Shown one piece after another: positions 4,397 to 61,535 of a stretch of 64,000 bases of DNA; the first letter of the stretch is position 1, and every line of letters begins with the position of its first letter. Source of the DNA: Candidatus Omnitrophota bacterium (GTDB lineage: Bacteria > Omnitrophota > Gorgyraeia > Zapsychrales > Zapsychraceae). A program made the translations under genes and the position numbers. The notes under the pieces were generated by a model. It was not told the DNA's origin and ran no database searches. It worked only from the letters and a program-made list of their open reading frames with translations. The stretch is from assembly GCA_015233115.1 (NCBI GenBank), contig JADFYJ010000011.1:17824-81823 (forward strand), given 5' to 3'.

Positions 4397-4433
4397 AAGC
4401 GATTGATGCGGGCGATCGGGAGATCGCCCCTAC
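4397..4433 (-). repeat. REP-like hairpin element, inverted copy
   Basis: The sequence aagcgattgatgcgggcgatcgggagatcgcccctac. Confidence 0.75.
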
Positions 4434-4514: not shown

Positions 4515-4560
4515 GTAGGGGCGATCTCCTGATCGCCCGTAAACAAAATTATCGGTTTTT
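4515..4560 (+). repeat. REP-like hairpin-terminator element, direct copy
   Basis: The sequence gtaggggcgatctcctgatcgcccgtaaacaaaattatcggttttt. Confidence 0.8.
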
Positions 4561-8196: not shown

Positions 8197-8240
8197 GTAG
8201 GGGCGATCTCCTGATCGCCCGCAACAAAATTATCGCTTTT
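8197..8240 (+). repeat. REP-like hairpin-terminator element, direct copy
   Basis: The sequence gtaggggcgatctcctgatcgcccgcaacaaaattatcgctttt directly follows the PFOR gene. Confidence 0.8.
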
Positions 8241-9744: not shown

Positions 9745-12700
9745 ATGAGTAAATATAGGACTTCAAACAGTCTATTTGTGCGTAAATTAATAAGTATATT
9801 TCTTATATTTACCTTTATATTCTCTTCAATAAATATTCCGCAATATGCTTATGCTCAAACCGCGCCGCTCATGCCCGTTCCCGGAACTATGGTCGGGTTA
9901 ACTCCGCCGTTTAATCCGCCGGTTCTTAAAGGTATTAAAGTCTATCCAGACAACCCGCTTCGATTTGATTTCATTTTGGATAACGGCTTCGCCCTTATCC
10001 AAAATGACCCTGAGCGACCAGCGGGAGTCGAAGGGTTACAACAAGAAGCGAAAAAGCTTATCAAATATTTTCTAGCCTCACTGACTGTTCCCGAAAACGA
10101 TTTATGGGTCAACCTGTCACCGTACGAAAAAGGCCGCATTGTCCCCAAAGAGTTCGGCCAAACCGAAATGGGCCGGGATCTCTTGGCGCAAGATTATCTT
10201 TTGAAACAAATCACCGCGTCCCTAATGTATCCCGAAAATGAAATCGGCCGAGAATTTTGGGATAAGATATACAAAAAACTGTATTCCTCTCCCCTTCGGG
10301 GAGAGGGAAGGGTGAGGGGTTTAGATATTCCTATCGATACGTTCAATAAGGTTTGGATCGTCCCAGAAAAAGCCGTAGTCTTTGAAAATGGTTCGACTGG
10401 CTCACCATGGAACGCAGCTTATGTCGTTGAAAGTAAATTAAAAGTCATGCTCGAATCAGATTATCTTGCCGCGTCGAAAAATATTGCGTCCTCGTTCGTA
10501 GGGGAGGGTCCCCGCCCCTCCCGCATACAAGAATCCGCCAAACAAATCATCCGCGAAGTCATTATTCCCGCGATCGAAAAAGAAGTGAATACCGGTAAAA
10601 ACTTTGCCCAGCTCCGTCAAGTCTACAACTCTTTGATCCTTGCTGCCTGGTACAAAAAGAAAATCAAAGAAAGCTTATTAAGCAAAATTTATGTCGATAA
10701 AAACAAAATTACCGGCGTAAACATTGATGATCCTAAAGCTGCGGAAAAAATCTGGGCGCAGTACGTCGAGTCATTTAAAAAAGGCGTTTATAACTACATT
10801 AAAGAAGAATACGATCCAAATACACAGCAAATCATTCCGAAAAAATATTTTTCCGGCGGGTTTGATGCCGCTCAATTATTTGGCAACAAAATAAATTCTG
10901 CCCTAACAATAACGAAAGTATTGCCTTCCAATAAAGCAAATGAAGAGAAGCAGCGTAATAGTGTGGTTTCAGTCAATATGGATCCGGTTAATTTTTGGGG
11001 TAAGATTCAAAAACGACTAACTCCTTTCATATTTGCCGCTTCGTTGTTGACTACATCTTACAGCGCGCTTGGAGTTCAATTTTTTAATCATGAACTAGAA
11101 GGGCATGGTAAAGAGACATCAATTGCTTTAGTGCAAAAAGGTGACAGCTTCATTTCCATTGCCCAAGCCATATGTAAAAAAGCCAAAAAATCTTTTACTG
11201 AAGAGCAGATCAAAAGAGTAGCCGACGCCATTAAAGAGGATAATGCGAAAAATTTAAAAGGAGAAAATCTGTCTCCCGGAGAAAATTTAAACATCAATAA
11301 AGCTGAAGGATTGGTTTGGTCCATTGATCTCTTGAATAATTCCCAAATCGTGGCCACATCCAAGATTGCTATTGCAGGGAATCAGCCGATTGATGTTTAT
11401 TTCATTCGACCGGCAGATAAAAAGGAATTTAATAATTTTGTTGCGTTTGCGTCGATTGAAACCGGGCAGCTTTTTATGGATGTTGATCAGTTTGTTGAGC
11501 AATTGAATGTGTTTAAAAAAATTATAAAAAATCCCCGTTCTGTTTGGGCGAAGTTATATCAAGGGAAAAGTGATCAGTATATATTTGAACATTACATGGC
11601 GGAAATGATTTACCATGAATATGTTCACACCTTGACAACGCCTATCATCCGTTCAAAAAAATTTGATTCTCAAACAAAGGAGTTTAAGGAATACCTGCAA
11701 GATGATTCCCATGACATTTATCGGGTGGCAGAAGAAGTGTCTGCCTATTTAGCTCAAGCGTCTGTGAGCGAAGAACCGGCCATGGCATTGACGGGATTGG
11801 TAGATAAAATTGATTCGCAACAATTCGGAACAGATGATTATGCTGCGGCTGGTTTTGTTTTGATGCGCCAAATCATGACCCCATTAGGATATGAACAATA
11901 TTTATTAAACACCATGAAGCAGCAACAAGGACGGGAAATAACCGCAGACGAAAAAAAAGGTTTGCATGAAGCTTATGAATCGGGTTCGTATGCGATGAAC
12001 GAATATAGGGGTGTATTAGCAAAATTTTTGCTTCAAAATCCAAAAGATCAATTACGGCAATCAACACACGCTTCATTCAAAAATATATTCGGAATCGATT
12101 TGCCTGGCTTTACTCAATTTACAATTCCGAGACAAGTTATAGAGGATTATTCAACAAGAGGAGCAGAACATAAATTAATAGATGCTGGCGACGTTATTAA
12201 AGATCAGGCGATGATTGCGGGAAAATTAAAATCTAAAATTATTCGTGCCTTGGCGGTTTCGTTAATGGCATATTATTTTACGGGATCTGTTAAGGGTGCA
12301 GAGTTTACGGATATTTCTTTTCCTTATGGATATAAAACAACAGTGGCAAAAGCGCAGACAGGGGATACACCCGAATCAGTGGTGAGAAGATTTGTTGATT
12401 TGCAGGTTGTGGCACAGAAAAAGTATATGCCTTTAGGGGATACGGTTTGGGATGAATTTGTTAGTAAGTATGGTTTGATTGATAATTATGGAGTACTACA
12501 AGAAAAATTTATAGCGTTGAAAGATTTTAACGAGTTTAAGTCGGTTATTGGTGCAATGAATGAGGAATATGCAAAGAAAATATATGATTATTTAAAGTTA
12601 ATTCAGGAACATATCTATAAACTCAGCCCAGATGAAATTGCCCAGATAACCAGTAAAATTAGTAAAAATTTACAGAGAAAAATAGCAAACGGTAAATTTG

Positions 12701-15700
12701 TTCCAGGCGAAATTGTTGATTTGAAATCAGCAACCGAGGAGTTGCGTTTTATTTCAACGCTCAAAAGCGATGATATCGTGGGCAGCACAACTGTTACTAT
12801 CAATAAGAATCCAGTAGAAATTTATTTTGTGAATAAAGATACCGGGGTTAGGTTGGCGTATACGTCAGAAAACAGGGTGTTTATGAATTTAGGAAGTTTT
12901 CGGGCAATTCCTGGTGAAACAAAAGAGATTATAGCCGAAGCCACGAAGGAAAGTATTTCACAATTACAGGTACGAACTTTTCCGGCAGGTATTAAAGACA
13001 GTGAGATTTTCTTTTCTAAACTTAGAGAACTATTGGCTCATGAGTTTGCGCATACGTTGACTACAGCTTTAGTGGAAAGTGGCGCAGTTAAAATATACCC
13101 AGCGCCAGTTTCGGATAATGAATACATGGCAACCATGGAAGTGTCAGGGATTTTGGGTCAAATCGCGGGTAGCGACCATCCGGTTAAAACATTTGCAGAA
13201 TTCAAAGGTGCGGCACAAAGTCTTTTTTTCGAAGGCGGGCAACAATATATTATTGCTTCGCAAACGATTAGTGACCGTATGCTTGAGCTTTTGCATTTTG
13301 GTGATTATGTGCTTAAACGGGAAAATGAAAAACGCGATAAGTCAGAAAAGGAACCGTCTAAACCATTAACTGCGGATGATTTCTCGAATTTGAAGAAAGA
13401 GGCGGTTACTCAAATTATGACAGATCTTAAACAATCGGGTTATATTAATGCCGAAGGTAAAATTTTACAATGTCCTCTTTTGGGTGATGCCAGGGAATTT
13501 AAAATTAATGGTAAATATTCCGATAAAGAACGTGAAATGATTTATGACCGCTTACTGCGCTCATATGATCTTAATTCGTGGGGTGTGTCGGAGGATTTAA
13601 AAGATGGTGCTGTTTTTAAGGAGGATGCAATCGAATTTTTTCTAAAGTTAAATCCGGACGCCGTGCGTCAGGCGGCTCGCGATGTTCATAAAGCCATATT
13701 TGGCGTTGACCTGTCCACAGATCCTGTGACAATTCCTGATTTTGTGAAAGAGTATAGCATTAAGAAATATTTTCCTGCTGAAGAAACGACAAAAAGCCAT
13801 AAAGATCAAGCAATGATTGTAGGGCAATTAAAGTACAAAATTATTCGGGCCTTGGCGGTTTCGTTAATGGCATATTATTTTACGGGCGCTGTTAAGGGCG
13901 CAGAATACACAGATATTTCATTTCCTTATGGATATAAAACAACGGTAGCAAAGACTCAGCAAGGGGATACACCTGAATCAGTTGTTAAGAGGTTTATTGA
14001 TTTACAAGTGGTAGCACAAAAAAAGTTGATGCCCTTGGGAGATACGGTATGGGATGATTTCGTTAAGTATGGGTTTATTGATAATTTTGGCGTGCTTCAA
14101 GAAAAATTTTTGGCATTAAAAAATTTTGAAGATTTTAAAAAAGTTATCGGCCCAATGAAAGAGGAATATGCAAAGAAAATATATGATTACTTAAAGTTAG
14201 TTCAAGAGCATATCATTAAACTCAGCCCGGATGAAATTGCTCAATTAACAAGTAAAATTAGTAAAAATTCGGTGGTAAAAATAAAACATGGAAAATTTAG
14301 TCCTGACGAAATCGTTGATTTGAAATCCGCAACTGAGGAACTCAGTTTTATATTACAGCTTAAAAGCGACGATATTGTCGGGAGCACAACAGTTTCGATC
14401 AATAAGAAGCCGGTAGAAATTTATTTTGTGAACAAGGACACCGGTGTTCATTTGGCATATACTTCGGAAAACAGGGTCTTTATGAATTTAGGAGGTTTTC
14501 GGTCTGCGACAACTGACACAAAACAGATTATAGCTCAAGCCAAAAAAAATAGTATTAGTCAATTAGATGTACGCGCTTTTCCTGTAGGAACAACAGATAG
14601 CGACATTTTCTTTTCTAAGCTCAAAGAACTATTGGCTCATGAGTTTGCGCATACGTTGACTACAGCTTTAGTGGAAAGCGGCGCAGTTAAAATATACCCA
14701 GCGCCAGTTTCGGATAATGAATACATGGCAACCATGGAAGTGTCAGGGATTTTGGGTCAAATCGCGGGAAGCGACCATCCGGTTAAAACATTTGCAGAAT
14801 TCAAAGGTGCGGCACAAAGTCTTTTTTTCGAAGGCGGACAGCAATATATTATTGCGTCACGCACGATTAGTGAGAGGATGCTTGAATTGTTGCATTTTGA
14901 TGAGTATGTGCTAAAACGCGAACACGAAAAACAAGATAAGGTGAAAAAGGAGCCGTCGAAACCATTGAAAGCGGATGATTTTTTTGGTTTTGAAAAAGAG
15001 GCCGTCCCGAAAATTATGGCGGATCTTCAAGGTATGGGGTATATCGATAATAAAGGAAATATTTTACAATGTCCGCTTTTGGGTAATGCTAAAGATTTTA
15101 AAATCAAAGGTCATTATTCTGCTGAAGAACGTGAAATGATTTATCGATATTTATTAAGGGCATTTGATCATCATATGTTAGGTGTCTTGCTGCAGTTACA
15201 AGATGGAATCGCTTCAGACGAGGATGAAGTTGAATTTTTTCTGGGTTTAAATCCGGATGCCGTGCGTCAGGCGGCTCGCGATGTTCATAAAGCCATATTT
15301 GGCGTTGACTTGCCCACGAATCCTGTGACAATTCCGGATTTTGTAAAAGAGTATAGCATTAAGAAATATTTTCCTGCTGAAGAAAAGACAAACAGCCATA
15401 AAGATCAGGCGATGACAAATGAAGAAACAGCTGCAACTAACATGAATCAAAATATCGAGCAAGAGCCTATACCAGTCTTTGGCATGTCTCCATGGCGAAG
15501 GGATAACATAAGCTTCAAACAAATTACTGATGTTGGCCGGTTGAATGCTGCAGGTGTACGAAAATTAATCGGGTATATCGATTCACTCCCTGCTCCCGAA
15601 GTTGAGCAAATCATTAAATATTATATGGCTAAGGGTTTTGGTGTTAAGGCATATAAAAACGGAGAGATTTCTATCAATGGAGGGGCGGTATTTGTTTGGG

Positions 15701-16095
15701 ATCGTGTTAATCTGCAAAAGCTGATTAATCAGAATTTAGGCATTTTGAAAGCAGCCGGAATACCCAGTGATAAGGACGGCGGGATATCTGCGGATGATTT
15801 AGCTGACTATATTGCAAAACATAACGTATCTTCTGAAAAATATCCTGAAGCCTATGCCACCGTTGGAATAGCTTTTGCTGATTCTCGTTTTAATCAGCAG
15901 GCATTGGCTTTTAATAAAGGCGGTATTGACTTGAATCCTGTAGACAAAACCTTGCAAATTCAAAGCAACGGCGATGTCATTAAATTCAACATCGACCCTG
16001 CCATGCTGGAACAGTTAAAAAATGCTTCCGGTTTTTCGCCTATCATTATCAATATTACGCCGCTGAAGGATTTAAAAATGTTTTTGGGGATATGA
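9745..16095 (+). CDS. giant secreted modular protein (2116 aa), paralogue of 40775..45784, with three HExxH modules
   Basis: The signal peptide ends in PQYAYAQ. An N-terminal domain of about 330 aa and the C-terminal 50 aa are conserved with the second giant ORF. The central part is a tandem of modules of about 535 aa each, carrying HEYVH, HEFAH and HEFAH. Confidence 0.8.
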   Translation: MSKYRTSNSLFVRKLISIFLIFTFIFSSINIPQYAYAQTAPLMPVPGTMVGLTPPFNPPVLKGIKVYPDNPLRFDFILDNGFALIQNDPERPAGVEGLQQEAKKLIKYFLASLTVPENDLWVNLSPYEKGRIVPKEFGQTEMGRDLLAQDYLLKQITASLMYPENEIGREFWDKIYKKLYSSPLRGEGRVRGLDIPIDTFNKVWIVPEKAVVFENGSTGSPWNAAYVVESKLKVMLESDYLAASKNIASSFVGEGPRPSRIQESAKQIIREVIIPAIEKEVNTGKNFAQLRQVYNSLILAAWYKKKIKESLLSKIYVDKNKITGVNIDDPKAAEKIWAQYVESFKKGVYNYIKEEYDPNTQQIIPKKYFSGGFDAAQLFGNKINSALTITKVLPSNKANEEKQRNSVVSVNMDPVNFWGKIQKRLTPFIFAASLLTTSYSALGVQFFNHELEGHGKETSIALVQKGDSFISIAQAICKKAKKSFTEEQIKRVADAIKEDNAKNLKGENLSPGENLNINKAEGLVWSIDLLNNSQIVATSKIAIAGNQPIDVYFIRPADKKEFNNFVAFASIETGQLFMDVDQFVEQLNVFKKIIKNPRSVWAKLYQGKSDQYIFEHYMAEMIYHEYVHTLTTPIIRSKKFDSQTKEFKEYLQDDSHDIYRVAEEVSAYLAQASVSEEPAMALTGLVDKIDSQQFGTDDYAAAGFVLMRQIMTPLGYEQYLLNTMKQQQGREITADEKKGLHEAYESGSYAMNEYRGVLAKFLLQNPKDQLRQSTHASFKNIFGIDLPGFTQFTIPRQVIEDYSTRGAEHKLIDAGDVIKDQAMIAGKLKSKIIRALAVSLMAYYFTGSVKGAEFTDISFPYGYKTTVAKAQTGDTPESVVRRFVDLQVVAQKKYMPLGDTVWDEFVSKYGLIDNYGVLQEKFIALKDFNEFKSVIGAMNEEYAKKIYDYLKLIQEHIYKLSPDEIAQITSKISKNLQRKIANGKFVPGEIVDLKSATEELRFISTLKSDDIVGSTTVTINKNPVEIYFVNKDTGVRLAYTSENRVFMNLGSFRAIPGETKEIIAEATKESISQLQVRTFPAGIKDSEIFFSKLRELLAHEFAHTLTTALVESGAVKIYPAPVSDNEYMATMEVSGILGQIAGSDHPVKTFAEFKGAAQSLFFEGGQQYIIASQTISDRMLELLHFGDYVLKRENEKRDKSEKEPSKPLTADDFSNLKKEAVTQIMTDLKQSGYINAEGKILQCPLLGDAREFKINGKYSDKEREMIYDRLLRSYDLNSWGVSEDLKDGAVFKEDAIEFFLKLNPDAVRQAARDVHKAIFGVDLSTDPVTIPDFVKEYSIKKYFPAEETTKSHKDQAMIVGQLKYKIIRALAVSLMAYYFTGAVKGAEYTDISFPYGYKTTVAKTQQGDTPESVVKRFIDLQVVAQKKLMPLGDTVWDDFVKYGFIDNFGVLQEKFLALKNFEDFKKVIGPMKEEYAKKIYDYLKLVQEHIIKLSPDEIAQLTSKISKNSVVKIKHGKFSPDEIVDLKSATEELSFILQLKSDDIVGSTTVSINKKPVEIYFVNKDTGVHLAYTSENRVFMNLGGFRSATTDTKQIIAQAKKNSISQLDVRAFPVGTTDSDIFFSKLKELLAHEFAHTLTTALVESGAVKIYPAPVSDNEYMATMEVSGILGQIAGSDHPVKTFAEFKGAAQSLFFEGGQQYIIASRTISERMLELLHFDEYVLKREHEKQDKVKKEPSKPLKADDFFGFEKEAVPKIMADLQGMGYIDNKGNILQCPLLGNAKDFKIKGHYSAEEREMIYRYLLRAFDHHMLGVLLQLQDGIASDEDEVEFFLGLNPDAVRQAARDVHKAIFGVDLPTNPVTIPDFVKEYSIKKYFPAEEKTNSHKDQAMTNEETAATNMNQNIEQEPIPVFGMSPWRRDNISFKQITDVGRLNAAGVRKLIGYIDSLPAPEVEQIIKYYMAKGFGVKAYKNGEISINGGAVFVWDRVNLQKLINQNLGILKAAGIPSDKDGGISADDLADYIAKHNVSSEKYPEAYATVGIAFADSRFNQQALAFNKGGIDLNPVDKTLQIQSNGDVIKFNIDPAMLEQLKNASGFSPIIINITPLKDLKMFLGI
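12037..15420 (+). repeat. intragenic tandem duplication of about 1.6 kb (two full units plus a partial third) inside the giant gene
   Basis: Units at 12037-13650 and 13651-15249 with a partial third from 15250. The segment 13026-13262 against 14626-14862 is nearly identical at nucleotide level, while the flanks are only protein-level similar. Confidence 0.8.
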
Positions 16096-16227: not shown

Positions 16228-18375
16228 ATGGAGATTAGATGGCTTTCCCCGTTTTTTCTGGGTTTGATATCAACCCTCGCCCAAATTATGCTTTTGCGTG
16301 AATTGAATGGGGTGTTTGGCGGGAATGAGATTGGATACGCGTTTGTGCTCGGGAGTTGGTTATTATGGGTGGCTCTTGGCGCTGCGGCTATTAGGTTATT
16401 AGGCTACCGAGTAAAAAATGTAAAAGTTTTACTGTTTATTGGGTTTTTGCTGTTTATTGGGTTTTTGCTGTTTGCAATCCTGATTCCTTCCTTAATTTTT
16501 TTATCCCGTTATCTTAAATTGTTTTTTAATATTCATCCCGGAGAATTAGTGGGTTTGCCGTGGATGATGGGTGTTTCTATCCTTGTGACCGCGCCGCTTA
16601 GTTTTTTAACCGGAGCGATGTTCGCGGTATGCTGTCTACCTTATAGAAAACAAAACTCGCGGAATAATGACTATGTCACTAAAATTTATTACGCTGAATC
16701 TTTAGGGTCGGCTTCAGGAGGAGCTTTATTTTCTTTTGTCATGGTATATTTCTTATCCAATTTGTGGATAGGGTTGGGGCTGGGAGCTTTGGATGCCAAA
16801 TCTAAACAAGCACAATGGTCACCCTTGAAGGTTGCGGCATATACAGATTCTTTGTACGGGCAGTTGACTCTTACTGAATCCAAGGGAGAATACAGTTTAT
16901 ATGAAAACGGTGGGCACAGTTTTACGACCGGGGATTTTTTATCGTCGGAAGAGATGACGCACTATGCCATGCTTTGGCACCCTAATCCTAAAAGAGTTTT
17001 GTTGATAGGAGGGGGAATGGGTGGGGCGTTAGAAGAGATTTTAAAATACAGATCAGCCCAAATCGACTATGTTGAGCTTGATCCAAAAATAATGAGTTTA
17101 AGCGGAGCTAATTTACCGACGCGGTATACCAAAGTTTTGAATGACCCGCGGACCCGCGTGATTAATATGGACGGACGGCGTTTTGTCAAAACCGCGCAGA
17201 TGAATGTTATGACCAAGTCTCCTTATGATGTGATCATTATTGGTGTCGGCGATCCGCATACTTTATTGCAGAACCGTTATTACACTAAAGAATTTTTTGC
17301 TGAGGCGAAACGGGTGCTTAATCAAGACGGGGTGATTAGTTTTTCCGCTCAGTCTGCGGCAGATTATCTGAGTAAGGAAAACCGTCAATCTTTACAATCG
17401 TTTTATTCCACCTTAAAAACTTCATTTAAAAATATTAAATCTTTGCCTGGAGACAGGCATATTTTTGTCGCGTCCAACCGGAATGACTTTGGGTCATGGA
17501 CAGCCGCGTTTTTTGAACAGCAGATCAAACAACGGGGGATTAATACACAATTTGTTTCTAAGGCGTATTTGCCCGCGCGGTTTGATCCATACCGTATAGC
17601 TGAAGTGGAAAAAATCTTGTCTGTTCCCGGGTGGATTAATACCGATGAAAGACCAACCGCTTTTTTATTAGATACCTCTTTGTGGGCCAGTCATTTTAAT
17701 ACTGGATTCGGTGAGTGGTTTGGCCGTCTTGCCAATATTTCTTTTCTTTTCGTTATAGGTTTTATTGTCATCTTGTTTTTGTTTTTTGCTGTTTGGTCGC
17801 GCTTCAAAAAAAATGTTGCCATGGGTACGGCAATTTTTGTAACGGGATTTTGGGGTATGGTTTATCAGATTTTGATCATTCTGGCGTTTCAAAGTATTTT
17901 CGGCTATGTATATCAGAAAATAGGTTTGATCATTGCGTTATTTATGCTTGGATTAGCCGGAGGAAGTTGGATAGCACAAAAACAGTCCCATAATAATGAT
18001 CAAAAGAGGATTCAGAAAATATTCAACAGTTCACAAGTTTGGGGCATGTTTTATTGTTTGTTTTTACCATTTATTTTTTTAGTGTTTCGTGATACTGTGT
18101 TGAAAGGTTTTCAAGTGGATATTTTGTTCTTCGTATTTATGAGTTTGCCTTTTTTAGCCGGAGGGATGGTCGGGTGGCAGTATGGCCTGGCTGTTATGTT
18201 ATTGGGAAATGAAAGCAGGTCTGCCACAGGTTTATACGCGTTGGATGTGCTTGGCGCAGCCTTAGGCGCTTTTTTAGCGGGGATATTTTTAGTGCCGGTT
18301 TTCGGTATCAGTCAGGTGTCATTGTTGTGCGGATTTTTGAATTTTGCTGTATTTTTAATCTTTGTGCTTTTTTAG
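16228..18375 (+). CDS. polytopic membrane protein fused to a spermidine-synthase-like (SpeE-fold) domain
   Basis: 715 aa with many TM helices. A central domain has an aminopropyltransferase-like fold (LIGGGMGGALEEI...VELDP). An internal 18-nt tandem repeat encodes LLFIGFLLFIGF. Confidence 0.6.
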   Translation: MEIRWLSPFFLGLISTLAQIMLLRELNGVFGGNEIGYAFVLGSWLLWVALGAAAIRLLGYRVKNVKVLLFIGFLLFIGFLLFAILIPSLIFLSRYLKLFFNIHPGELVGLPWMMGVSILVTAPLSFLTGAMFAVCCLPYRKQNSRNNDYVTKIYYAESLGSASGGALFSFVMVYFLSNLWIGLGLGALDAKSKQAQWSPLKVAAYTDSLYGQLTLTESKGEYSLYENGGHSFTTGDFLSSEEMTHYAMLWHPNPKRVLLIGGGMGGALEEILKYRSAQIDYVELDPKIMSLSGANLPTRYTKVLNDPRTRVINMDGRRFVKTAQMNVMTKSPYDVIIIGVGDPHTLLQNRYYTKEFFAEAKRVLNQDGVISFSAQSAADYLSKENRQSLQSFYSTLKTSFKNIKSLPGDRHIFVASNRNDFGSWTAAFFEQQIKQRGINTQFVSKAYLPARFDPYRIAEVEKILSVPGWINTDERPTAFLLDTSLWASHFNTGFGEWFGRLANISFLFVIGFIVILFLFFAVWSRFKKNVAMGTAIFVTGFWGMVYQILIILAFQSIFGYVYQKIGLIIALFMLGLAGGSWIAQKQSHNNDQKRIQKIFNSSQVWGMFYCLFLPFIFLVFRDTVLKGFQVDILFFVFMSLPFLAGGMVGWQYGLAVMLLGNESRSATGLYALDVLGAALGAFLAGIFLVPVFGISQVSLLCGFLNFAVFLIFVLF

Positions 18376-18868: not shown

Positions 18869-18990
18869 GCGCGCGGTTGGGACGGTTTCGCATTTAAATC
18901 GAATCCCTTCGCTCAAACAACCTTGGCGCGGCGCCAAGGAAACTCGCTCTGGGGATTCAATTTAAATGCAGACCTATTTATTGGCACGCG
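18869..18990 (+). repeat. structured element of about 122 nt, copy 1 (family of 4)
   Basis: It starts at the stop codon of the preceding gene and has long inverted arms (ggtttcgcatttaaatcgaatccc / ggggattcaatttaaatgcagacc). A central 8-bp hairpin is ccttggcg-cgg-cgccaagg. The element is bounded by the GCGCGCGGTT / GCACGCG direct motif. Confidence 0.8.
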
Positions 18991-24946: not shown

Positions 24947-24990
24947 GTAGGGGCGATCTCCTGATCGCCCGAAACAAAATTATCGCTTTT
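24947..24990 (+). repeat. REP-like hairpin-terminator element, direct copy
   Basis: The sequence gtaggggcgatctcctgatcgcccgaaacaaaattatcgctttt. Confidence 0.8.
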
Positions 24991-28752: not shown

Positions 28753-28875
28753 GCGCGCGGGTTGGGCGGTTTGCATTTAAACCAAATCCTTCGCTCAAAC
28801 AACCTTGGCGAAGCGCCAAGGAAACTCGCTCGGGGATTCGGTTTTAACGCCAACCTTTTGTATTGGCACGCGGTT
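28753..28875 (+). repeat. structured element of about 122 nt, copy 2
   Basis: It lies immediately after the mlaD stop codon. The central hairpin is ccttggcg-aag-cgccaagg. Confidence 0.8.
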
Positions 28876-40774: not shown

Positions 40775-43700
40775 ATGTTTTCTGCAAAAAAAGTTATTTC
40801 ATCTGTTTTACTGGTCGTTATTTCTTTAACCTTTACAGTGCCGCCGCAATATGCGCAAGCACAATTTGTATTGACGCCAAGCATTCCTGCGCCAACAAGT
40901 TACGTTCCTGTTATAATCAAGGGCGTAAATCTTAATCCGCAGAATCCGCTCAAGTTCGATTTTATTATCGACCGAGGAACTTCCTCCGCTGATTTGCCTT
41001 TGGCAAATCAAAGCGCGGAGGCTGCGTTTCGTTCCGAATCGCAGAAACTAATCCGCTACTTTTTAGCTTCTTTAACTATCCCCCAAAAAGATATGTGGGT
41101 TAACCTTTCGCCGAATGAGCCAGACAGAATTGTGCCACAAACTTTTGGTAACACAGAAATGGGCCGCGATTTATTAGCGCAAGATTTTATGCTGAAACAA
41201 CTGACAGCCAGTCTCATGAGCCCGGATGGAGAAGTGGGACGAAAGTTTTGGGATAAAGTCTACGCCAAAATTTACGAAACTCCCTCTCCCCTTCGGGGAG
41301 AGGGTAGGGTGAGGGGTTTAGAAATCCCCACCGACATTTTTAACAAAGTCTGGATTGTCCCATCTAAAGCCAAAATTTATGAACATGAAAAAGGTGCGTT
41401 TATTACAGATACAGCGTTTAAAGTCATGACAGAGCGCGACTATGTCGCGCAGACACAAGACACAGGACACAAGTCACAAGAAGGACAAGATGCTGTGACC
41501 TTACAAATAGTCAAAGATGTTATCATCCCCGCTATTGAACAAGAAGTCAACCATGGCAAAACTTTTGCTAACTTGCGCCAGATCTATAATTCTCTTATCT
41601 TAGCCATGTGGTACAAAGAAAAAGTTAAGAAAAGCGTGCTCGGCCAGGCTTACTCTAATAAAGAGAAGACTTCTGGTCTAGAAGTCGCCTCAAATGAAAA
41701 ACAAAAGATCTACCAACAATATCTCGACGCTTTCCGTAAAGGCGCGAGTAATGCGATTAAAGAAGAATATGATCCCAATACCCAACAAATTGTAGCCCGG
41801 AAATATTTCTCTGGCGGTATTCAAGCAGATCAGGCACAAATTTCATTAGCTACAAAAGAGGAAATGGACGCGGCTATGAAAGCTGCCATTGCCACGGAGA
41901 ATGTTGCGACGGTAATTCAGTTTGCAGGAGCCAAAGCCCCTGACGCGGCGATGACCAGCGAAATTGTTAAAGAAATAGTTAAAAGTTTTGTTGAAGATTT
42001 TAAAAGAAAGCGTCTACCTGGTGGTTTTAATTTTTCTGTTGATGCCCAACAAAGCGGAGAAGATGTTATAGTTACAATTGAACAAACTACCAGGTCTCTG
42101 CCCCCGATACTAATTCAAGATTTTTATCACTATGTTAGCTGGTTGACAAATAAATTTACTTCTCCAATTAAATTGACACCGATGGATAGTCTGAGTGCGT
42201 ATATGCGTAAATTTAAAATTTCCGACGCGGCGATGATGTCTGTAGAGAAATACAATCGGGTGATAAAAGATGCTGAGCAAGCTTGGGGAGGAGAATTGGA
42301 GCGAGCGGATCAATTGGTTGAGTTTTTGAAAAATCGATTTAATCCTGAAAAAGCTTTGGAATCAGGAGCGATTTTTATTCCCAGGGCTGTGGTGCAGAAT
42401 GAAGCGCGGATGGGTTTAACGCCTATTGGGATTAAACTGTTAAAAAGTTTAGGCATTAAAAATGAAATTTATGTCGAAGCTGCAGCAGGAATAAATCGGC
42501 AGAGTGGCAAGGTTTATTTCACGGATGCGTATTACATAAATGCTGGAGCAAAAATTTTGTCCCATGATGAATTTTATAAACGGGCGGAACAAGCAGATAA
42601 AAAAGTTGTGGTGAGCATTAAGGAACCGCAAGAATCAGAATACAAATTATTAAAAAACGCGCTGTTATTTACTTATTTGCATTTGGCGGATAGCCCTAAG
42701 TTGACTCAGGATTTGTTAAATTTATTAGCAACTGGTGTGGCGTATGAAACTATTGCTTTTAAAACGCCAGAGGGGATAACCAGAACTCCGGTGTTAGCTC
42801 CTGCCAGTATTGCCGCTGGGTGGGTCAGCGCGGCCCGTACTGCCGCATTTTTTGGGGGGATAATTAATGACGAAAGACAGCGTATATTTGCAGAATCATT
42901 ACAGTATTATGCCACTTCTGAAAATTTCCCTCTTAACTTGCGGAAAAGTTTAGAAGGAATAACTGTAACTGTTCTGGGCGGCGGAGTTGCCGGAGAAAGC
43001 GCAGCCATAACTCTCGCGAAAATGGGAGCAAAGGTTTATATCACAGAAGTTAATCCTAAAAGGATCCTGGAGTTAGAAAAGATAATCACTTCACAAGGAT
43101 TAGGATTAGCGATTACAGTTTTAAAAAGAGATCTTTCTGTTCCACGGGTCTTTGACCAATTTCGAACAGAATTGTTAGAATCATCCGCGATAATTGGCGC
43201 CGTTCTTATCCCCGGAGCCAAGGCGCCGAAAGAGATAGATGAATCAACATATGAAGCGCTGGTCAAAGGAGGAAAATTTAAATTTTTTGCTGATATAGCG
43301 ATTGATCAAGGCGGAAATAACGTCAGAAGTGTCGCGCGTAAATATCAAGATGGCTGGCCTATGGATGAAAATCGAGTCGGACAATTTACTGTGACAAACA
43401 TGCCCAGCGTTGTTCCTTTGCAGGTTTCATTTGGTTTGGAACGAGCCAAATTAGCGTATTTAGTAGCGCTTTTGATGGGCACACCAGAAGCGGTCAAGGC
43501 GTTTCCCGAATTAGAGCAGGGTGTGAACATCCGTAATGGCCAGATCACGAATAAGCCGGTCGGGGAAGCGGTTAGAATGGATGCTGTTTCATTAAAAGAA
43601 GCAGATGAAGCAATCGCGACAGTTGATGCGGCGATGACCGTAGACCCGTTTAATCTTACTACAAAAAATGTGGCGGAATGGGATAATATTCAACGGGCGA

Positions 43701-45784
43701 TAACTGATGATGTTATTTCTAACCGGGTCATTCCTTTAATTAAAGGCAGTTATTTGAAGGGGGTAGAAAAAAATCAGTTAATAAACACAATTCAAAAACT
43801 ACGGGAAATATCTTCGGTTGATTTTGAAAAAAGCAAAAAAGATAACCCGCTTCATCACAGTTTTATAGTTCTGGATATTGTGTTACAGATTGCTTTTGGA
43901 AAAAAATTATTCTATCCGGAAATTAAAAAACTGGCAGCTTTAGCCATTCTGCATGATTTAGGTTATGGCGCGTTAGAAGAAAGCAAAGGTCGTATCAGTA
44001 GTGGTAAGATTAAACAAATGATTAAGGATTATGAGCTTCAAAAGGATAGTTTATCCAAGGAACTGAGGGAGGAAAAAGTAGCGGCAATAAAAAAAGCCAT
44101 TCAAGGTGCTATTGATGCTAGAAATGAGCATATGGAAAAAGGCGTTTTTATAGCTCAAATATTGTTAGAGAAATTTAATAAAGAAGATTCTGATCCGGAC
44201 GATAAGTTTAGTCCTGAAGATATTAAGGAGATATGTGCGTTAGTCGGGATGCATGATAATCCTGGTATTGCTAAGACGTATGAAACTGAAGAATATAAAC
44301 CATATATATCTGGATCAGCTGATAAATTACTTATTGGTAAAGATAAGCAACTAGCGCTTATTTTTCGTGAAGCAGACAGATTGTGGATGCTTTCCTATGA
44401 AGGATTAATAAAGGATTTAATGGATAGTTTGCTTAAAGGTGACAACCCTCTCTCTGTTGAGAAACAGCTCGTCAATAATATCGCTGTATTTAGTGATGAA
44501 CGAAAGTCATACGATGCGACAGGTAAAGATTATGGCAATTTTAAAGGCGATACTTTCATTAGAACTGACACAGGTTATAAAATATATAAAGATTTTATCC
44601 AGGCATGGCAAAAGATAATCAAAGATCATGCTGCTTTAGTGAAGGCTTTTAAAATCCAAAGGTTTGATTTTAATAGAGCGACCGATACTGCGATGACTGC
44701 ATTTGAAGAGAAGAGACAGACTTTTAGAGATAATTTATTAGCTATAGTGCAAAAGGGCTGTCAACCTAGTGGACTCTCCATATTGAGAAAGCAAATAACA
44801 GAGTTTATCATTTTAGAACAAGATTCGCCGTATCTCTCCAGATTTTTATATAATTTTTTAAATGATCTAGTTGAATTGCATCAGTCTTTAAATGCTGACA
44901 AAGCCGATGCTTTATATTCCTTATTTCACAATTTAAATGACTGGGTGGCAGGAATAAAAACTAGTAATGGAGCCATCTTAATAGATTATTGGGTTGAGAC
45001 AGAAAACGGAAAAATGAAATTAGAAAAAAATAAATCATGGATCTATTCTCGCGATATAGTGATTAGGGATACGATTTTCTTAATTTTGTTACGTAATTTA
45101 TTGATCAACATGCCAATGACTGCAGATTTTAAAGAAACAAGTGCCGGAAAAATTCCTGATATGAAATCGGTTCTGGAAGTCGATAAAAATTTTAAGATGC
45201 AGCTTAATTTGCTTAAAGGAATTAATCCTCAAAAATTAAGCAGTCTTAAGAAAAATTTTGCAGGAGCCATATCGTCAATAAAGGCATGGTCAGAGGTTTC
45301 TGAAGTATGGGATAACGTTGAAGGCGTTGTCTCAATCGTCTCGTCTCCTTGTCAAGAATCCGCGAAACAATTGAATGATTTTTATGCAAGCATTCCCGAC
45401 AAGGCGATGACAGTGGATGAGGAAAATAAAACAGACGGTGGTATCGACTTAAACGCCGCGCAGTTTTCCGTTGGAGTTGATAAACAGGGAAAAGGGTTTG
45501 AATATAATGTGGATCCGGCTATGTTACAGCAATTCATCAACGCGCCGGGGGTTAACGCGATTATTACCAATATTCAGCCGATTACCAATTTGCCGGTGTT
45601 TTTGGGGTTGGCAGTGGGGAAACCCCGTAAAATCGCTTATGCGATCACGGGGTCGGAAAAAACTGATCAAGTCGCGCTTCAGCTTTCTTTATTGGATGTC
45701 ATGGATAGCTTGACGATAAGGTTCGGGTATGATACATTTATTTTGAAAAATAAGGAGGTCGATTGCCAACAATTTTGGTCGTAG
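40775..45784 (+). CDS. giant secreted modular protein (1669 aa), paralogue of 9745..16095, with alanine-dehydrogenase/PNT-like and HD phosphohydrolase domains
   Basis: The signal peptide ends in PQYAQAQ. The N-terminal domain and the C-terminal 50 aa are shared with giant gene 1. The centre has AlaDH-like blocks (FTYLHLA, GVAYETIAF, LGGGVAGESAA) and HD motifs (LHDLGYG, GMHDNPG). Confidence 0.8.
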   Translation: MFSAKKVISSVLLVVISLTFTVPPQYAQAQFVLTPSIPAPTSYVPVIIKGVNLNPQNPLKFDFIIDRGTSSADLPLANQSAEAAFRSESQKLIRYFLASLTIPQKDMWVNLSPNEPDRIVPQTFGNTEMGRDLLAQDFMLKQLTASLMSPDGEVGRKFWDKVYAKIYETPSPLRGEGRVRGLEIPTDIFNKVWIVPSKAKIYEHEKGAFITDTAFKVMTERDYVAQTQDTGHKSQEGQDAVTLQIVKDVIIPAIEQEVNHGKTFANLRQIYNSLILAMWYKEKVKKSVLGQAYSNKEKTSGLEVASNEKQKIYQQYLDAFRKGASNAIKEEYDPNTQQIVARKYFSGGIQADQAQISLATKEEMDAAMKAAIATENVATVIQFAGAKAPDAAMTSEIVKEIVKSFVEDFKRKRLPGGFNFSVDAQQSGEDVIVTIEQTTRSLPPILIQDFYHYVSWLTNKFTSPIKLTPMDSLSAYMRKFKISDAAMMSVEKYNRVIKDAEQAWGGELERADQLVEFLKNRFNPEKALESGAIFIPRAVVQNEARMGLTPIGIKLLKSLGIKNEIYVEAAAGINRQSGKVYFTDAYYINAGAKILSHDEFYKRAEQADKKVVVSIKEPQESEYKLLKNALLFTYLHLADSPKLTQDLLNLLATGVAYETIAFKTPEGITRTPVLAPASIAAGWVSAARTAAFFGGIINDERQRIFAESLQYYATSENFPLNLRKSLEGITVTVLGGGVAGESAAITLAKMGAKVYITEVNPKRILELEKIITSQGLGLAITVLKRDLSVPRVFDQFRTELLESSAIIGAVLIPGAKAPKEIDESTYEALVKGGKFKFFADIAIDQGGNNVRSVARKYQDGWPMDENRVGQFTVTNMPSVVPLQVSFGLERAKLAYLVALLMGTPEAVKAFPELEQGVNIRNGQITNKPVGEAVRMDAVSLKEADEAIATVDAAMTVDPFNLTTKNVAEWDNIQRAITDDVISNRVIPLIKGSYLKGVEKNQLINTIQKLREISSVDFEKSKKDNPLHHSFIVLDIVLQIAFGKKLFYPEIKKLAALAILHDLGYGALEESKGRISSGKIKQMIKDYELQKDSLSKELREEKVAAIKKAIQGAIDARNEHMEKGVFIAQILLEKFNKEDSDPDDKFSPEDIKEICALVGMHDNPGIAKTYETEEYKPYISGSADKLLIGKDKQLALIFREADRLWMLSYEGLIKDLMDSLLKGDNPLSVEKQLVNNIAVFSDERKSYDATGKDYGNFKGDTFIRTDTGYKIYKDFIQAWQKIIKDHAALVKAFKIQRFDFNRATDTAMTAFEEKRQTFRDNLLAIVQKGCQPSGLSILRKQITEFIILEQDSPYLSRFLYNFLNDLVELHQSLNADKADALYSLFHNLNDWVAGIKTSNGAILIDYWVETENGKMKLEKNKSWIYSRDIVIRDTIFLILLRNLLINMPMTADFKETSAGKIPDMKSVLEVDKNFKMQLNLLKGINPQKLSSLKKNFAGAISSIKAWSEVSEVWDNVEGVVSIVSSPCQESAKQLNDFYASIPDKAMTVDEENKTDGGIDLNAAQFSVGVDKQGKGFEYNVDPAMLQQFINAPGVNAIITNIQPITNLPVFLGLAVGKPRKIAYAITGSEKTDQVALQLSLLDVMDSLTIRFGYDTFILKNKEVDCQQFWS
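41452..41490. repeat. in-frame heptamer array (ACACAAG family) inside giant gene 2
   Basis: The sequence cagacacaagacacaggacacaagtcacaagaaggacaag encodes TQDTGHKSQEGQD in a linker. Confidence 0.6.
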
Positions 45785-54039: not shown

Positions 54040-54617
54040 ATTTACCAAATATTTTAACCCTTTTGCGTTTTTTTTTGACGGGCATATTTATTTTCTTTGC
54101 CTGTCAAAATAGTTTGTCGTCAGCTTTTTTTGCTTTATTAGCGTTTAGCGCGGCTGCGCTGACAGATTATTTTGACGGGTATTACGCGCGGAAACATAAT
54201 CTGATTACTGATTTTGGAAAATTAATGGACCCGATCGCGGATAAATTTTTAATGCTTTCGGCATTCGGCATTTTCGCGGTTCAACAAATTTTTCCAATGT
54301 GGATGTTTGTGGTCATTGCCATCCGGGAGATTGGGATTACGGTATGGCGCATTATCGCGGCACACCGGGGCATTACGTTAGCCGCGGAAAAAACCGGAAA
54401 AATTAAAACAGTCTGTCAGATTGCGGTCGCGATATTTATTTTATTTGTGCATATTCTTGTCAGGGCAGGGATGTTCCCTCAAAGAAACGCGGATTTAATG
54501 GCGGTCTTGATATGTTTGATTTGGGTTTGGATGGGTCTGGTGGTTGTTTTGACTGTATGGTCGGGGGCGGAAGTTTTGAGGAAGTCAAATGAAAAAGTCG
54601 TAGGGGCGATCACCTGA
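54036..54617 (+). CDS. pgsA: CDP-diacylglycerol--glycerol-3-phosphate 3-phosphatidyltransferase
   Basis: It carries the CDP-alcohol phosphatidyltransferase motif (DYFDGYYARK...GKLMDPIADK). ATGA overlap with rimO. Confidence 0.8.
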   Translation: MNLPNILTLLRFFLTGIFIFFACQNSLSSAFFALLAFSAAALTDYFDGYYARKHNLITDFGKLMDPIADKFLMLSAFGIFAVQQIFPMWMFVVIAIREIGITVWRIIAAHRGITLAAEKTGKIKTVCQIAVAIFILFVHILVRAGMFPQRNADLMAVLICLIWVWMGLVVVLTVWSGAEVLRKSNEKVVGAIT

Positions 54618-54644
54618 TCGCCCGTAACAAAATTATCGCTTTTA
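54600..54644 (+). repeat. REP-like hairpin-terminator element, direct copy (loop variant CACC)
   Basis: The sequence gtaggggcgatcacctgatcgcccgtaacaaaattatcgctttt. Confidence 0.8.
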
Positions 54645-54678: not shown

Positions 54679-54800
54679 GCGCGCGGTAGGGCGGTTTGCA
54701 TTTAAACCAAATCCTTCGCTCAAACAACCTTGGCGAAGCGCCAAGGAAACTCGCTCTGGGATTCGGTTTAAACACAAACCTTGTGTTTGGGCACGCGGTT
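54679..54800 (+). repeat. structured element of about 122 nt, copy 3
   Basis: The sequence gcgcgcggtagggcggtttgcatttaaaccaaatccttcgctcaaacaaccttggcgaagcgccaagg...gggcacgcggtt. Confidence 0.8.
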
Positions 54801-58207: not shown

Positions 58208-58330
58208 GCGCGCGGTTGGGACGGTTTGCATTAAAACCAAATCCCTCGCTCAAACAGCAGCTCCGAAGCGGAGCTGAACTCGCTCTAGGATTCGGTTTTA
58301 ACGCCAACCTTAGTTTTTTTACGCGCGGTT
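58208..58330 (+). repeat. structured element of about 122 nt, copy 4 (covariant central hairpin)
   Basis: It has the same arms as copies 1 to 3. The central hairpin is replaced by cagctccg-aag-cggagctg, a different stem sequence with the same geometry. Confidence 0.8.
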
Positions 58331-58336
58331 TTTCTC

Positions 58337-58380
58337 GTAGGGGCGATCACCTGATCGCCCGCAACAAAATTATCGCTTTT
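58337..58380 (+). repeat. REP-like hairpin-terminator element, direct copy
   Basis: The sequence gtaggggcgatcacctgatcgcccgcaacaaaattatcgctttt. Confidence 0.8.
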
Positions 58381-60379: not shown

Positions 60380-60412
60380 AGGGGTAAAGGTGGTAAAGGT
60401 GATAAAGGAAAA
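60375..60412. repeat. tandem heptamer array, GGTAAAG family
   Basis: The sequence aaaggggtaaaggggtaaaggtggtaaaggtgataaagg overlaps the PHP stop codon and the annotated ribD start. Confidence 0.7.
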
Positions 60413-61535
60413 CACGATTGATGGAAAAGCGACGGGTTTAAACATGAACGATGAACTATTTATGCAACGAGCGCTGGAATTGGCATTACAGGGCAAAGGG
60501 TATACTTCGCCTAATCCGATGGTCGGGGCGGTGATTGTAAAGAATAATAAGGTCATAGCAGAAGGATTTCATGCCCGTTGCGGGGAAGATCACGCGGAAA
60601 CTGCGGCTTTGAAAAAATGTAAAGGGAACGTGGCTAAAGGCGCTACTTTGTATGTGAACTTAGAGCCATGTTTTCATGAAGGCCGGACTCCGCCTTGCGT
60701 GGACGCGGTCATAGCGGCAGGTATCAAAGAAGTTGTTATCGCTATGAAAGACCCTAACCCTTTGACTAATGGCAAATCAATCCGAAAACTCAATAACGCA
60801 GGCATTACGACTCGGGTGGGAATTTTGGGGGATCAAGCGGGCCGTTTGAATGAAGCGTTTGTGAAATTTATTAAAGAAGGCATGCCGTTTGTGGTCGCGA
60901 AAGTGGCGCAGACGATTGATGGGAAAATAGCGACCACAGCGCGGGATTCCATGTGGATCACTTCTGAAAAAACCCGCGAAATGAGCCGCACCGTGCGCGC
61001 TGAATTTGACGCGATTTTAGTCGGCGTCAATACCATGATGGTGGATGATCCGCGGCTTGAACCTCAGGACGCCAAAAAAGTTTTAAAGAAAATCATCGTG
61101 GATACCCGTCTCAGGGTGCCGCTTATTTCTAAGATTTTTAAAAAACCTGAGCAATGCATCGTGGCTACGACCAACAAGGCTGCCCTCAGCCAAATCTCTT
61201 TATTAAAGCACAAAGGGATTGAGGTGATAGTCTGTCCGGTGAGGAATAATAAAGTTGATTTGAAATGGCTTTTCAAAGAATTAGCGAAAGAAAACATCAC
61301 GAGCATTTTGATCGAGGGCGGTTCTGAAGTAATCGGCAGCGCGCTGAAAGAAGGGCTGGTCGATAAAATGCATATTTATATTGCTCCGAAAATTGTGGGC
61401 GATCAAAAAGCGCTCAGTTCTGTGACGGGCATGAATATTTCAAAAATAGAAGAGGCCTTGCAATTAAAAGATTTACAGGTATTATATTTTCATCCAGATA
61501 TAAGGATTGAAGGTTATGTTCTCAGGAATAGTTGA
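60390..61535 (+). CDS. ribD: bifunctional diaminohydroxyphosphoribosylaminopyrimidine deaminase / 5-amino-6-(5-phosphoribosylamino)uracil reductase
   Basis: It has the deaminase zinc motifs (HAE...PCxxC) and a C-terminal reductase domain. The true start may be ATG 60444 (MNDELFMQRALELA). The first 18 codons of the 60390 ORF are the heptamer array. Confidence 0.88.
   Translation: MVKVIKENTIDGKATGLNMNDELFMQRALELALQGKGYTSPNPMVGAVIVKNNKVIAEGFHARCGEDHAETAALKKCKGNVAKGATLYVNLEPCFHEGRTPPCVDAVIAAGIKEVVIAMKDPNPLTNGKSIRKLNNAGITTRVGILGDQAGRLNEAFVKFIKEGMPFVVAKVAQTIDGKIATTARDSMWITSEKTREMSRTVRAEFDAILVGVNTMMVDDPRLEPQDAKKVLKKIIVDTRLRVPLISKIFKKPEQCIVATTNKAALSQISLLKHKGIEVIVCPVRNNKVDLKWLFKELAKENITSILIEGGSEVIGSALKEGLVDKMHIYIAPKIVGDQKALSSVTGMNISKIEEALQLKDLQVLYFHPDIRIEGYVLRNS

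Follow-up and report, generated by a model that had tools for sequence, protein, structure and literature searches.

Introduction

A G/C-rich intrastrand triplex motif was named first BoxC, then PIT (potential intrastrand triplex) and then TMECO, and TMECO copies number 23 in Escherichia coli K-12 and 3610 in 262 genomes (Holder et al. 2015, PMC4666352). The TMECO pattern is CCCTCNCCC-N3-6-GGGNGAGGG-N3-GGGNGAGGG; its second loop is 3 nt long, TTA in type A copies such as CCCTCTCCCTGAGGGAGAGGGTTAGGGTGAGGGG and CCG in type B (PMC4666352). The same sequences have been described as the HPG1/HPG2 motifs, which switch between G-quadruplex, hairpin and duplex (Kaplan et al. 2016, PMC5100583). Here we analyse a 40-nt block that appears to be a copy of this repeat and that occurs twice, in frame within two large genes, in a 64,000-nt stretch of contig JADFYJ010000011.1 from the metagenome-assembled genome (MAG) HQL26 of Candidatus Omnitrophica. 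We refer to the whole stretch as the window and give all coordinates as positions within it.

Circular dichroism and nuclear magnetic resonance studies of the single-stranded motif concern E. coli sequences only (PMC4666352). In vivo in E. coli, stable triplex formation was undetected and PIT elements had no promoter, terminator or polymerase-blocking effect; TM motifs have been linked to local genomic instability in this organism (PMC4666352). Two other kinds of short palindromic DNA invite comparison. Rickettsia palindromic elements (RPEs) are selfish palindromic DNA lying in frame in protein-coding genes (Ogata et al. 2000 and 2002, as summarised in PMC10969869); they are about 100-150 bp long, restricted to Rickettsia and present in many unrelated genes. 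REP, or GTAG-tagged palindromic, repeats are mobilised by RAYT transposases (Di Nocera et al. 2013, PMC3733652).

A G/C-rich repeat in two large genes

The block lies within genes designated G1 (9745..16095, + strand; 2116 aa; HQL26_06995, MBF0479215.1, identical with P0183) and G2 (40775..45784, + strand; 1669 aa). As an earlier note on this DNA had reported, positions 10286-10325 and 41283-41322 are identical at 39 of 40 nt. A 22-nt run (10286-10307 in G1, 41283-41304 in G2) and a 17-nt run (10309-10325, 41306-41322) are separated by a single A/T mismatch. The longest other exact match between the N-terminal domains of G1 and G2 is 14 nt, and the 21-mer core of the block had no match across 100 dinucleotide shuffles of the window.

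Copy 1 (10286..10325, + strand; in frame, codons S181-D194) is made up of a C-arm CCTCTCCCC (10286-10294), a TTC loop (10295-10297), a G-arm GGGGAGAGG(G) (10298-10307), an AA linker (10308-10309) and a mirror G-tract GGGTGAGGGG (10310-10319). Copy 2 (41282..41322, + strand; in frame) has the C-arm CCCTCTCCCC (41282-41291), the TTC loop (41292-41294), the G-arm GGGGAGAGGG (41295-41304), a TA linker (41305-41306) and the same mirror G-tract GGGTGAGGGG (41307-41316). Both copies continue into a common TTTAGA (10320-10325 and 41317-41322) and encode the same peptide, SPLRGEGRVRGL, a loop of 11-12 residues; the G-rich strand of the block is the sense strand.

In register, the arms pair over 9 bp in G1 (CCTCTCCCC/GGGGAGAGG) and 10 bp in G2, enclosing a UUC triloop, or a CUUCG pentaloop once the last pair opens. 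This replaces the 8-bp stem with a canonical UUCG tetraloop that had been drawn previously, in which C(UUCG)G falls out of register. The G-rich tract recorded behind the hairpin is present, but it is more than a tail: GGGTGAGGG is the mirror image of the stem arm GGGAGAGGG. ViennaRNA, which models hairpins only, gave RNA minimum free energies of -27.2 kcal/mol for copy 1 (z = -2.6 relative to shuffles) and -34.5 kcal/mol for copy 2 (z = -3.3). Both copies are also canonical four-tract G-quadruplex motifs, that of copy 1 at 10298-10319, and they account for two of the three such motifs in 64 kb. The third is located at 60814-60841 (+), within an open reading frame (ORF) at 60390-61535.

Compared with the published family, the block shows the same succession of parts in nearly the same sequence, namely CCCTCTCCC(C), a variable loop, (G)GGGAGAGGG, a linker and GGGTGAGGG(G), with four G-tracts and a mirror symmetry that would permit a purine-motif triplex. 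The C-arm, first loop and G-arm read CCCTCTCCC-CTTCG-GGGAGAGGG in G2, and the G1 arm is the same save for its first base, T (TCCTCTCCC). The third tract, GGGTGAGGG, is antiparallel to GGGAGAGGG with 9 of 9 allowed triplets (G*G, A*A, T*A). The second loop departs from the published pattern, being 2 nt (AA in G1, TA in G2) instead of exactly 3. This is the minority form, found in 27 of the 142 motif instances in a sample of viral contigs, with TA the commonest linker of that length, and it is a variant of the family, not an outsider. Judged by its sequence, the block is a copy of a BoxC/PIT/TMECO-type G/C-rich repeat in its 2-nt-linker variant. As single-stranded DNA such a repeat can, by the pairings predicted for it, adopt a hairpin, an intrastrand purine-motif triplex or a G-quadruplex. 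Like REP repeats (PMC3733652), it is short, GC-rich and hairpin-forming and occurs in multiple copies, at times as inverted pairs; unlike them it has no terminal GTAG/CGTC tag, its ends being (C)CCTC... and ...GAGGGG. No RAYT gene was found, no search having been aimed at one.

Searches of other genomes agree with this assignment. By blastn, matches were present in all 5426 of 5426 complete E. coli genomes, at a median of 15 per genome; the best E. coli identity was 94.6% over 36-37 nt, and no annotated feature lay under the 8 matches listed. The exact 33-mer CTCTCCCCTTCGGGGAGAGGGWAGGGTGAGGGG was found at 19 loci in species-representative genomes of at least 6 phyla, the hosts being Dyella, Frateuria, Anaerolineae, Acidobacteriota, Thermodesulfobacteriota, Deltaproteobacteria, Muproteobacteria and another Omnitrophota MAG. 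Sixteen loci of other phyla have the exact 33-mer with the TA linker, and many 33-mer copies lie directly 3′ of a stop codon. In the source genome the setting is different. Both copies in the window are in frame within long ORFs, so that 0 of the 2 copies in 64 kb are intergenic, and the copies known from the genome, at least 4, are all at one paralogous site.

An in-frame insertion limited to one genome

G1 comprises a signal-peptide-like N-terminus, an Omnitrophota-specific N-terminal domain (~aa 40-375) and a C-terminal domain of ~58 aa. The N-terminal domain is common to G1 and G2 (9745-10884 and 40775-41854; ~370 aa, 50% protein and 57% DNA identity), as is the ~58-aa C-terminal GGIDLN...FLG domain (15919-16092 and 45437-45610). 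Their middles are unrelated, that of G2 carrying AlaDH/PNT domains. This layout, with common N- and C-terminal domains around unrelated middles, resembles a modular design for delivering or sorting variable cargo. The N-terminal domain family is large and Omnitrophota-specific, with thousands of members and 1409 matches at E <= 1e-5, and a fold search of this domain against the PDB returned no significant match. The middle of G1 contains an internal tandem duplication of 1.6 kb (12198-13816 and 13800-15415, 82% nucleotide identity), in which each unit bears a zincin-like AHEFAHTL motif and weakly matches eCIS_core (PF13699).

The identity of the block stands out sharply from its surroundings. 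In a codon alignment of G1 and G2, identical residues are encoded by the same codon in 79 of 181 cases overall and in 11 of 12 within the block, and nucleotide identity is 0.97 in the block as against about 0.64-0.70 in adjacent windows. The earlier description of flanks conserved as protein but rich in synonymous differences therefore holds, and the sharp drop in synonymous change that it expected at the hairpin is there, with abrupt edges; uniformly low synonymous divergence over a larger region, which it had named as the sign of simple gene conversion, is not what the alignment shows. Outside the block, divergence returns to background and the two 5′ junctions are unlike, which excludes, for the G1/G2 pair, a simple conversion tract that took flanks with it. 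The element alone, with no larger tract, is common to the two genes.

That an ordinary gene segment was simply and recently converted between the two genes, with no foreign element involved, is extremely improbable on this and other evidence. Such a conversion would draw on the facts that both genes reside in one genome and that the family has long near-identical stretches elsewhere (for example between G1 and its paralogue P0001), but the identity is limited to 40 nt with background-divergent flanks, the segment matches a repeat in unrelated genomes, and, as described below, it is an insertion relative to the whole family. Conversion between G1 and G2 that included flanking sequence was ruled out by the sharp edges.

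The family consensus around the site is ...FWxRVYxxAxxKYGTTDIPVNTFNKVWI..., and the distance from the invariant FW to KVWI is exactly 28 residues in 306 homologues (174 + 132) and 29-30 in three more. It is 35 residues in G1 (+7) and 37 in G2 (+9), with KKLYS-SPLRGEGRVRGL-DIP in place of AxxKYGTT-DIP. The carriers of the insert are G1, G2, HQL26_07460 and MBF0478800.1, all from the source MAG. In an exhaustive HMMER search with a 68-aa segment against 1.84 billion cluster representatives, four proteins ranked above the rest of the family: P0183 (G1), P0184 and P0186 with SPLRGEGRVRG, and P0185 with a different insert. All four are from HQL26, and no insert-bearing protein from outside HQL26 was found among those representatives. 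A search of 241 million metagenome records for GGGTGAGGG at most 31 nt upstream of an FNKVWI-coding motif yielded false positives only, five in number and microsatellite-like or unrelated.

Within HQL26, the closest paralogue of G1 is P0001 (HQL26_07965; 70% identity), and its site is empty and of the family consensus. The four paralogues that carry the insert share 45-51% identity and form no cluster upstream of the site or downstream of it, G1 grouping with P0001 on both sides. With the closest paralogue empty and the carriers diverged and unclustered, the insert is far more recent than the genes that hold it. Ancestral insertion followed by loss was rejected on the same two observations, the consensus empty site of P0001 and the absence of clustering among carriers on either side.

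Among the possibilities raised in the earlier note, an inserted element that preserves the reading frame is the one that these data favour, in the form of a known dispersed repeat absent from 306 homologues of fixed spacing. The note had preferred selection on RNA or DNA structure, through ribosome pausing, localisation or processing. In that version the block would be a selected cis-acting mRNA structure, a GC hairpin or RNA G-quadruplex that pauses ribosomes or marks a processing or localisation site. We consider this quite unlikely. The hairpins are strong (about -27 and -34 kcal/mol, z = -2.6 and -3.3), the sense strand is the G-rich one, and the same position is filled in four paralogues and occupied by another GC hairpin repeat in a fifth. 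Against this, neither the 306 homologues elsewhere nor P0001, the nearest relative of G1 within HQL26, has the structure, and absence from orthologues in related genomes is what the note itself had said would tell against a selected hairpin. The same sequence is a generic repeat that is intergenic in many phyla, and in living E. coli PIT elements neither acted as promoters or terminators nor blocked polymerase (PMC4666352). The copies being identical, there is no covariation to test. Rfam at gathering score returned two tRNAs only for the whole window. At E <= 10, the 150 nt around the block gave chance-level matches only, the best being whalefall-1 (17 bits, gathering score 37), with Antizyme_FSE at 13.5 bits (gathering score 40). 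The sharp synonymous drop is explained without a selected mRNA hairpin because the insert is young and the paralogues are old, and selection of this kind is unneeded as well as unsupported. A function in cis may nonetheless exist: four paralogues carry the element at this loop, and in a fifth another hairpin repeat takes its place. Overall, it is very likely that the block is a lineage-specific, in-frame insert of BoxC/TMECO type whose nucleotide identity reflects the repeat and not gene-specific selection.

Reading frame and fold

The insert occupies a position that appears to be compatible with the protein fold. In an AlphaFold2 model of G1 residues 1-380 (mean predicted local distance difference test score, pLDDT, 76), S182-G192 lies between a helix (166-181) and a strand (203-215), in a low-confidence loop with pLDDT of 64-66 as compared with about 90 on either side. 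In the TA-linker form one of the other two forward frames hits TAG and the other TGA, and the repeat is read as SPLRGEGRVRG because this is its sole stop-free forward frame. A programmed -1 frameshift was considered and rejected: the AAAAAAC that lies 7 nt upstream in G1 is not in X_XXY_YYZ register and is not found in G2, and the -1 frame of the G2 copy meets TAG. No in-frame slippery heptamer common to G1 and G2 was present upstream of the block.

Selection on the peptide, with the basic Gly/Arg-rich loop SPLRGEGRVRG recruited for binding or cleavage and the nucleotide identity a by-product of its spread, strikes us as very improbable. The same peptide is present in four paralogues and is placed in an exposed loop by the AlphaFold2 model. 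However, the fifth paralogue has the unrelated LDPRFRGNDKF at the same loop, the peptide is the only one that the repeat can encode in an open forward frame, and selection on protein would allow synonymous change, yet 11 of 12 codons are identical.

Translated palindromes were also found in another gene of this phylum. In another Omnitrophota MAG (locus L015; JAUYDX010000011.1, 2442-3980, - strand), the AroA (EPSP synthase) gene has four in-frame palindromic insertions. Two of them are an inverted pair of triplex motifs (LPLTLTLSPKGRGNKESRLSPSGRGKGEG), an arrangement also known for the family in E. coli, and correspond to a gap of ~22 residues relative to PDB 5bs5_A. The other two are copies of a perfect 43-nt palindrome, GTCCAACTTCGCAAGTTGCC-TGC-GGCAACTTGCGAAGTTGGAC, that encodes VQLRKLPAATCEVGQ and is unrelated to the triplex motif. 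Protein-coding palindromes may be common in Omnitrophota. Copies of the motif also occur within ORFs with Mu-transposase and MuF domains. Long open frames extended on both sides of the motif in 50 of 163 cases, a figure that overestimates coding copies in GC-rich DNA, and we accepted coding copies only with Pfam support. No description of in-frame BoxC/PIT copies came to light in a search of the literature.

The closest parallel for a translated palindrome is the RPE. As in RPEs, a palindromic repeat is translated in frame where the fold tolerates it and is lineage-specific relative to homologues, and the Omnitrophota AroA, with four in-frame palindromes of two families, extends the likeness. 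The differences, set against RPEs as the cited part of PMC10969869 portrays them (about 100-150 bp, Rickettsia only, many unrelated genes), are that the element here measures 35-40 nt, belongs to a family spread over many phyla and matches BoxC/TMECO; in the source genome it is seen at one site of one protein family, the AroA case being from another Omnitrophota MAG.

Recurrence at one loop of several paralogues

The four copies have in common their site, their orientation, their frame and the 3′ junction RVRG-L/F-D/E-IP. Since four frame/orientation options are open, random hits made independently would coincide with a probability of ~(1/4)^3, the shared position not yet counted. Because orientation, frame and 3′ junction are common to all four, we infer that the copies did not arise independently of one another; the candidate routes are the copying of short patches from one paralogue to another and insertion directed by a hairpin or by the site. 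Patchy exchange among the HQL26 paralogues is visible elsewhere in the domain. Over long stretches the identity of G1 and P0001 is 95-100%, and most of their differences fall into four discrete patches. The insert makes up one of these. A second is GSTGSPWNA (10384-10410, residues ~G214-A222), which contains a 6-residue GSTGSP insertion relative to the family. Because GSTGSP is common only to G1 and HQL26_09770 (P0185; GSTGSPKVT), exchange among the paralogues appears to have been mosaic. A further patch of G1, at 9985-10035 (residues ~F83-G99; FALIQNDPERPAGVEG), is a replacement or insertion of +8-9 aa relative to HQL26_07965.

Pilin antigenic variation in Neisseria needs a G-quadruplex at pilE. 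By analogy, the block could be a DNA-level recombination or homing signal, a triplex or G-quadruplex that is copied to, or recombines at, one loop and promotes exchange between paralogues. Several observations are consistent with this idea: the block is confined to homologous sites in paralogues of one genome, its orientation and frame are the same in all copies, the family is modular with common terminal domains and differing middles, the G1/P0001 identity is mosaic with GSTGSP only in G1 and P0185, and TM motifs are linked to local genomic instability in E. coli (PMC4666352). On the other side, segments upstream and downstream of the block show no phylogenetic discordance, G1 staying with P0001 on both sides; there is no evidence for a dedicated enzyme; and stable triplex was undetected in vivo in E. 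coli (PMC4666352). Such a signal is, in our view, improbable. We rate as unlikely, too, the broader proposal of a site-specific, coding-compatible micro-element or recombination signal that is actively copied into, or recombines at, one loop of the N-terminal domain. Were it true, the genome would possess in this loop an inherent hot spot at which paralogues are shuffled or converted, a diversification driven by non-B DNA with a logic like that of the Neisseria pilE G-quadruplex, and the second, unrelated hairpin repeat in the loop of the fifth paralogue would reflect a hairpin-targeting insertion mechanism.

The explanation that we favour, and consider likely as a whole, is that of a passenger. 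In the HQL26 lineage the repeat has lodged in frame in one loop of a conserved N-terminal domain, within a multi-paralogue family of large secreted-type proteins, and it would be tolerated there with no specific role for the gene, much as RPEs are. Its arrival at one codon position in at least four paralogues would have involved events that were not independent, through short-patch copying between paralogues or through orientation- and site-specific insertion at a hairpin-prone hot spot. The constancy of its sequence would be owed to whatever keeps the repeat family uniform across bacteria.

Several points weigh against this explanation. The E. coli copies of the family are strictly intergenic (PMC4666352, PMC5100583), unlike the translated copies here; they are also dispersed, whereas here the two copies in the window, like the two others known from the genome, share a single homologous site within a paralogue family. 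The motif is absent from the intergenic DNA of the window, whereas two other hairpin repeat families are represented there by 12 copies, with 0 in coding sequence; for this reason the element is unlike an ordinary dispersed repeat here. Identical 33-mers occur across phyla, and near-identity of copies is therefore in itself no proof of recency. The flanks of the G1 and G2 copies are as diverged as the rest of the domain, and their 5′ junctions are unlike in length and sequence (KKLYS| in G1, KIYETP| in G2); the junctions of the other insert-bearing HQL26 paralogues are known at the protein level only. Finally, the fifth paralogue, P0185 (HQL26_09770), has SLDPRFRGNDKFL at the same loop, another GC hairpin repeat, which could mean that a hairpin is selected at the site and not passively tolerated.

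The P0185 insert, LDPRFRGNDKF (residues ~109-121), is a variant of LDSRLRGND, the in-frame translation of a very widespread, GC-rich hairpin repeat. The consensus of that repeat is CTGGATTCCCGCCTGCGCGGGAATGACG, which is read as LDSRLRGND or WIPACAGMT depending on frame. A relaxed hairpin pattern of the CTGGATTCCCGCCTGCGCGGGAATGACG type matched at least 120 stretches in viral contigs (L145-L233), with at least 13 copies on one contig; the exact DPRFRGNDK pattern had 0 matches in viral contigs.

With this assignment the block loses its apparent mystery: what looked like a nucleotide-perfect "RNA hairpin" in two diverged genes is a known dispersed DNA repeat. For BoxC/PIT/TMECO the context is new, since the repeat is translated and recurs at one codon position in four divergent paralogues. 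This pattern offers a rare handle on how the repeat moves, whether by site-directed insertion or by patch conversion. Omnitrophota proteins, including the housekeeping AroA, contain translated BoxC/PIT/TMECO copies and at least two other palindromic repeat families, and protein-coding palindromes are thus not peculiar to Rickettsia. Such inserts create spurious "conserved" peptides (SPLRGEGRVRG, LDSRLRGND) and local peaks of GC content and G-quadruplex motifs, and annotation pipelines and motif hunters should recognise them.

Other repeats in the window

A second GC hairpin in G1, GGGGAGGG-TCCCCG-CCCCTCCC (10501..10522, + strand), lies in a hypervariable linker of the N-terminal domain and encodes GEGPRPS. 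The earlier note had grouped it with the block as a structured island. The hairpin exists, but it is a singleton that folds weakly better than shuffles (z = -1.6), and it is absent from G2 and from the closest paralogue. Its arm polarity is opposite to that of the triplex motif and it has no third tract. The linker that holds it is one where G1 differs from P0001 too, and the hairpin may be the remnant of another inserted GC-rich element.

GCGGGAATGA at 16319, which resembled the second repeat family, proved to be ordinary coding sequence (FGGNE) that lacks the hairpin.

The intergenic regions of the window contain a typical GTAG-tagged, REP-like family, separate from the block. Its hairpin, (c)GTAG-GGGCGATC-N4-GATCGCCC-GyAACAAAATTATCGCTTTT, combines a GCGATCGC (HIP1-like) core with the GTAG tag and is strictly intergenic, with eight copies in both orientations and none in coding sequence (2613-2632, 2686-2705, 4410-4429, 4519-4538, 8201-8220, 24951-24970, 54604-54623 and 58341-58360).

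An imperfect palindrome of ~65 nt, AAAyCAAATCCyTCGCTCAAACAA-(CCTTGGCG-AAG-CGCCAAGG)-AAACTCGCTCtGGGATTCGGTTT, has four intergenic copies (18921-18939, 28803-28821, 54728-54746 and 58258-58276) with conserved flanks of ~25 nt. It could be a miniature inverted-repeat transposable element or a small structured RNA. In the copy at 58258 the flanks are retained around a central stem that is different but compensated (CAGCTCCG-AAG-CGGAGCTG).

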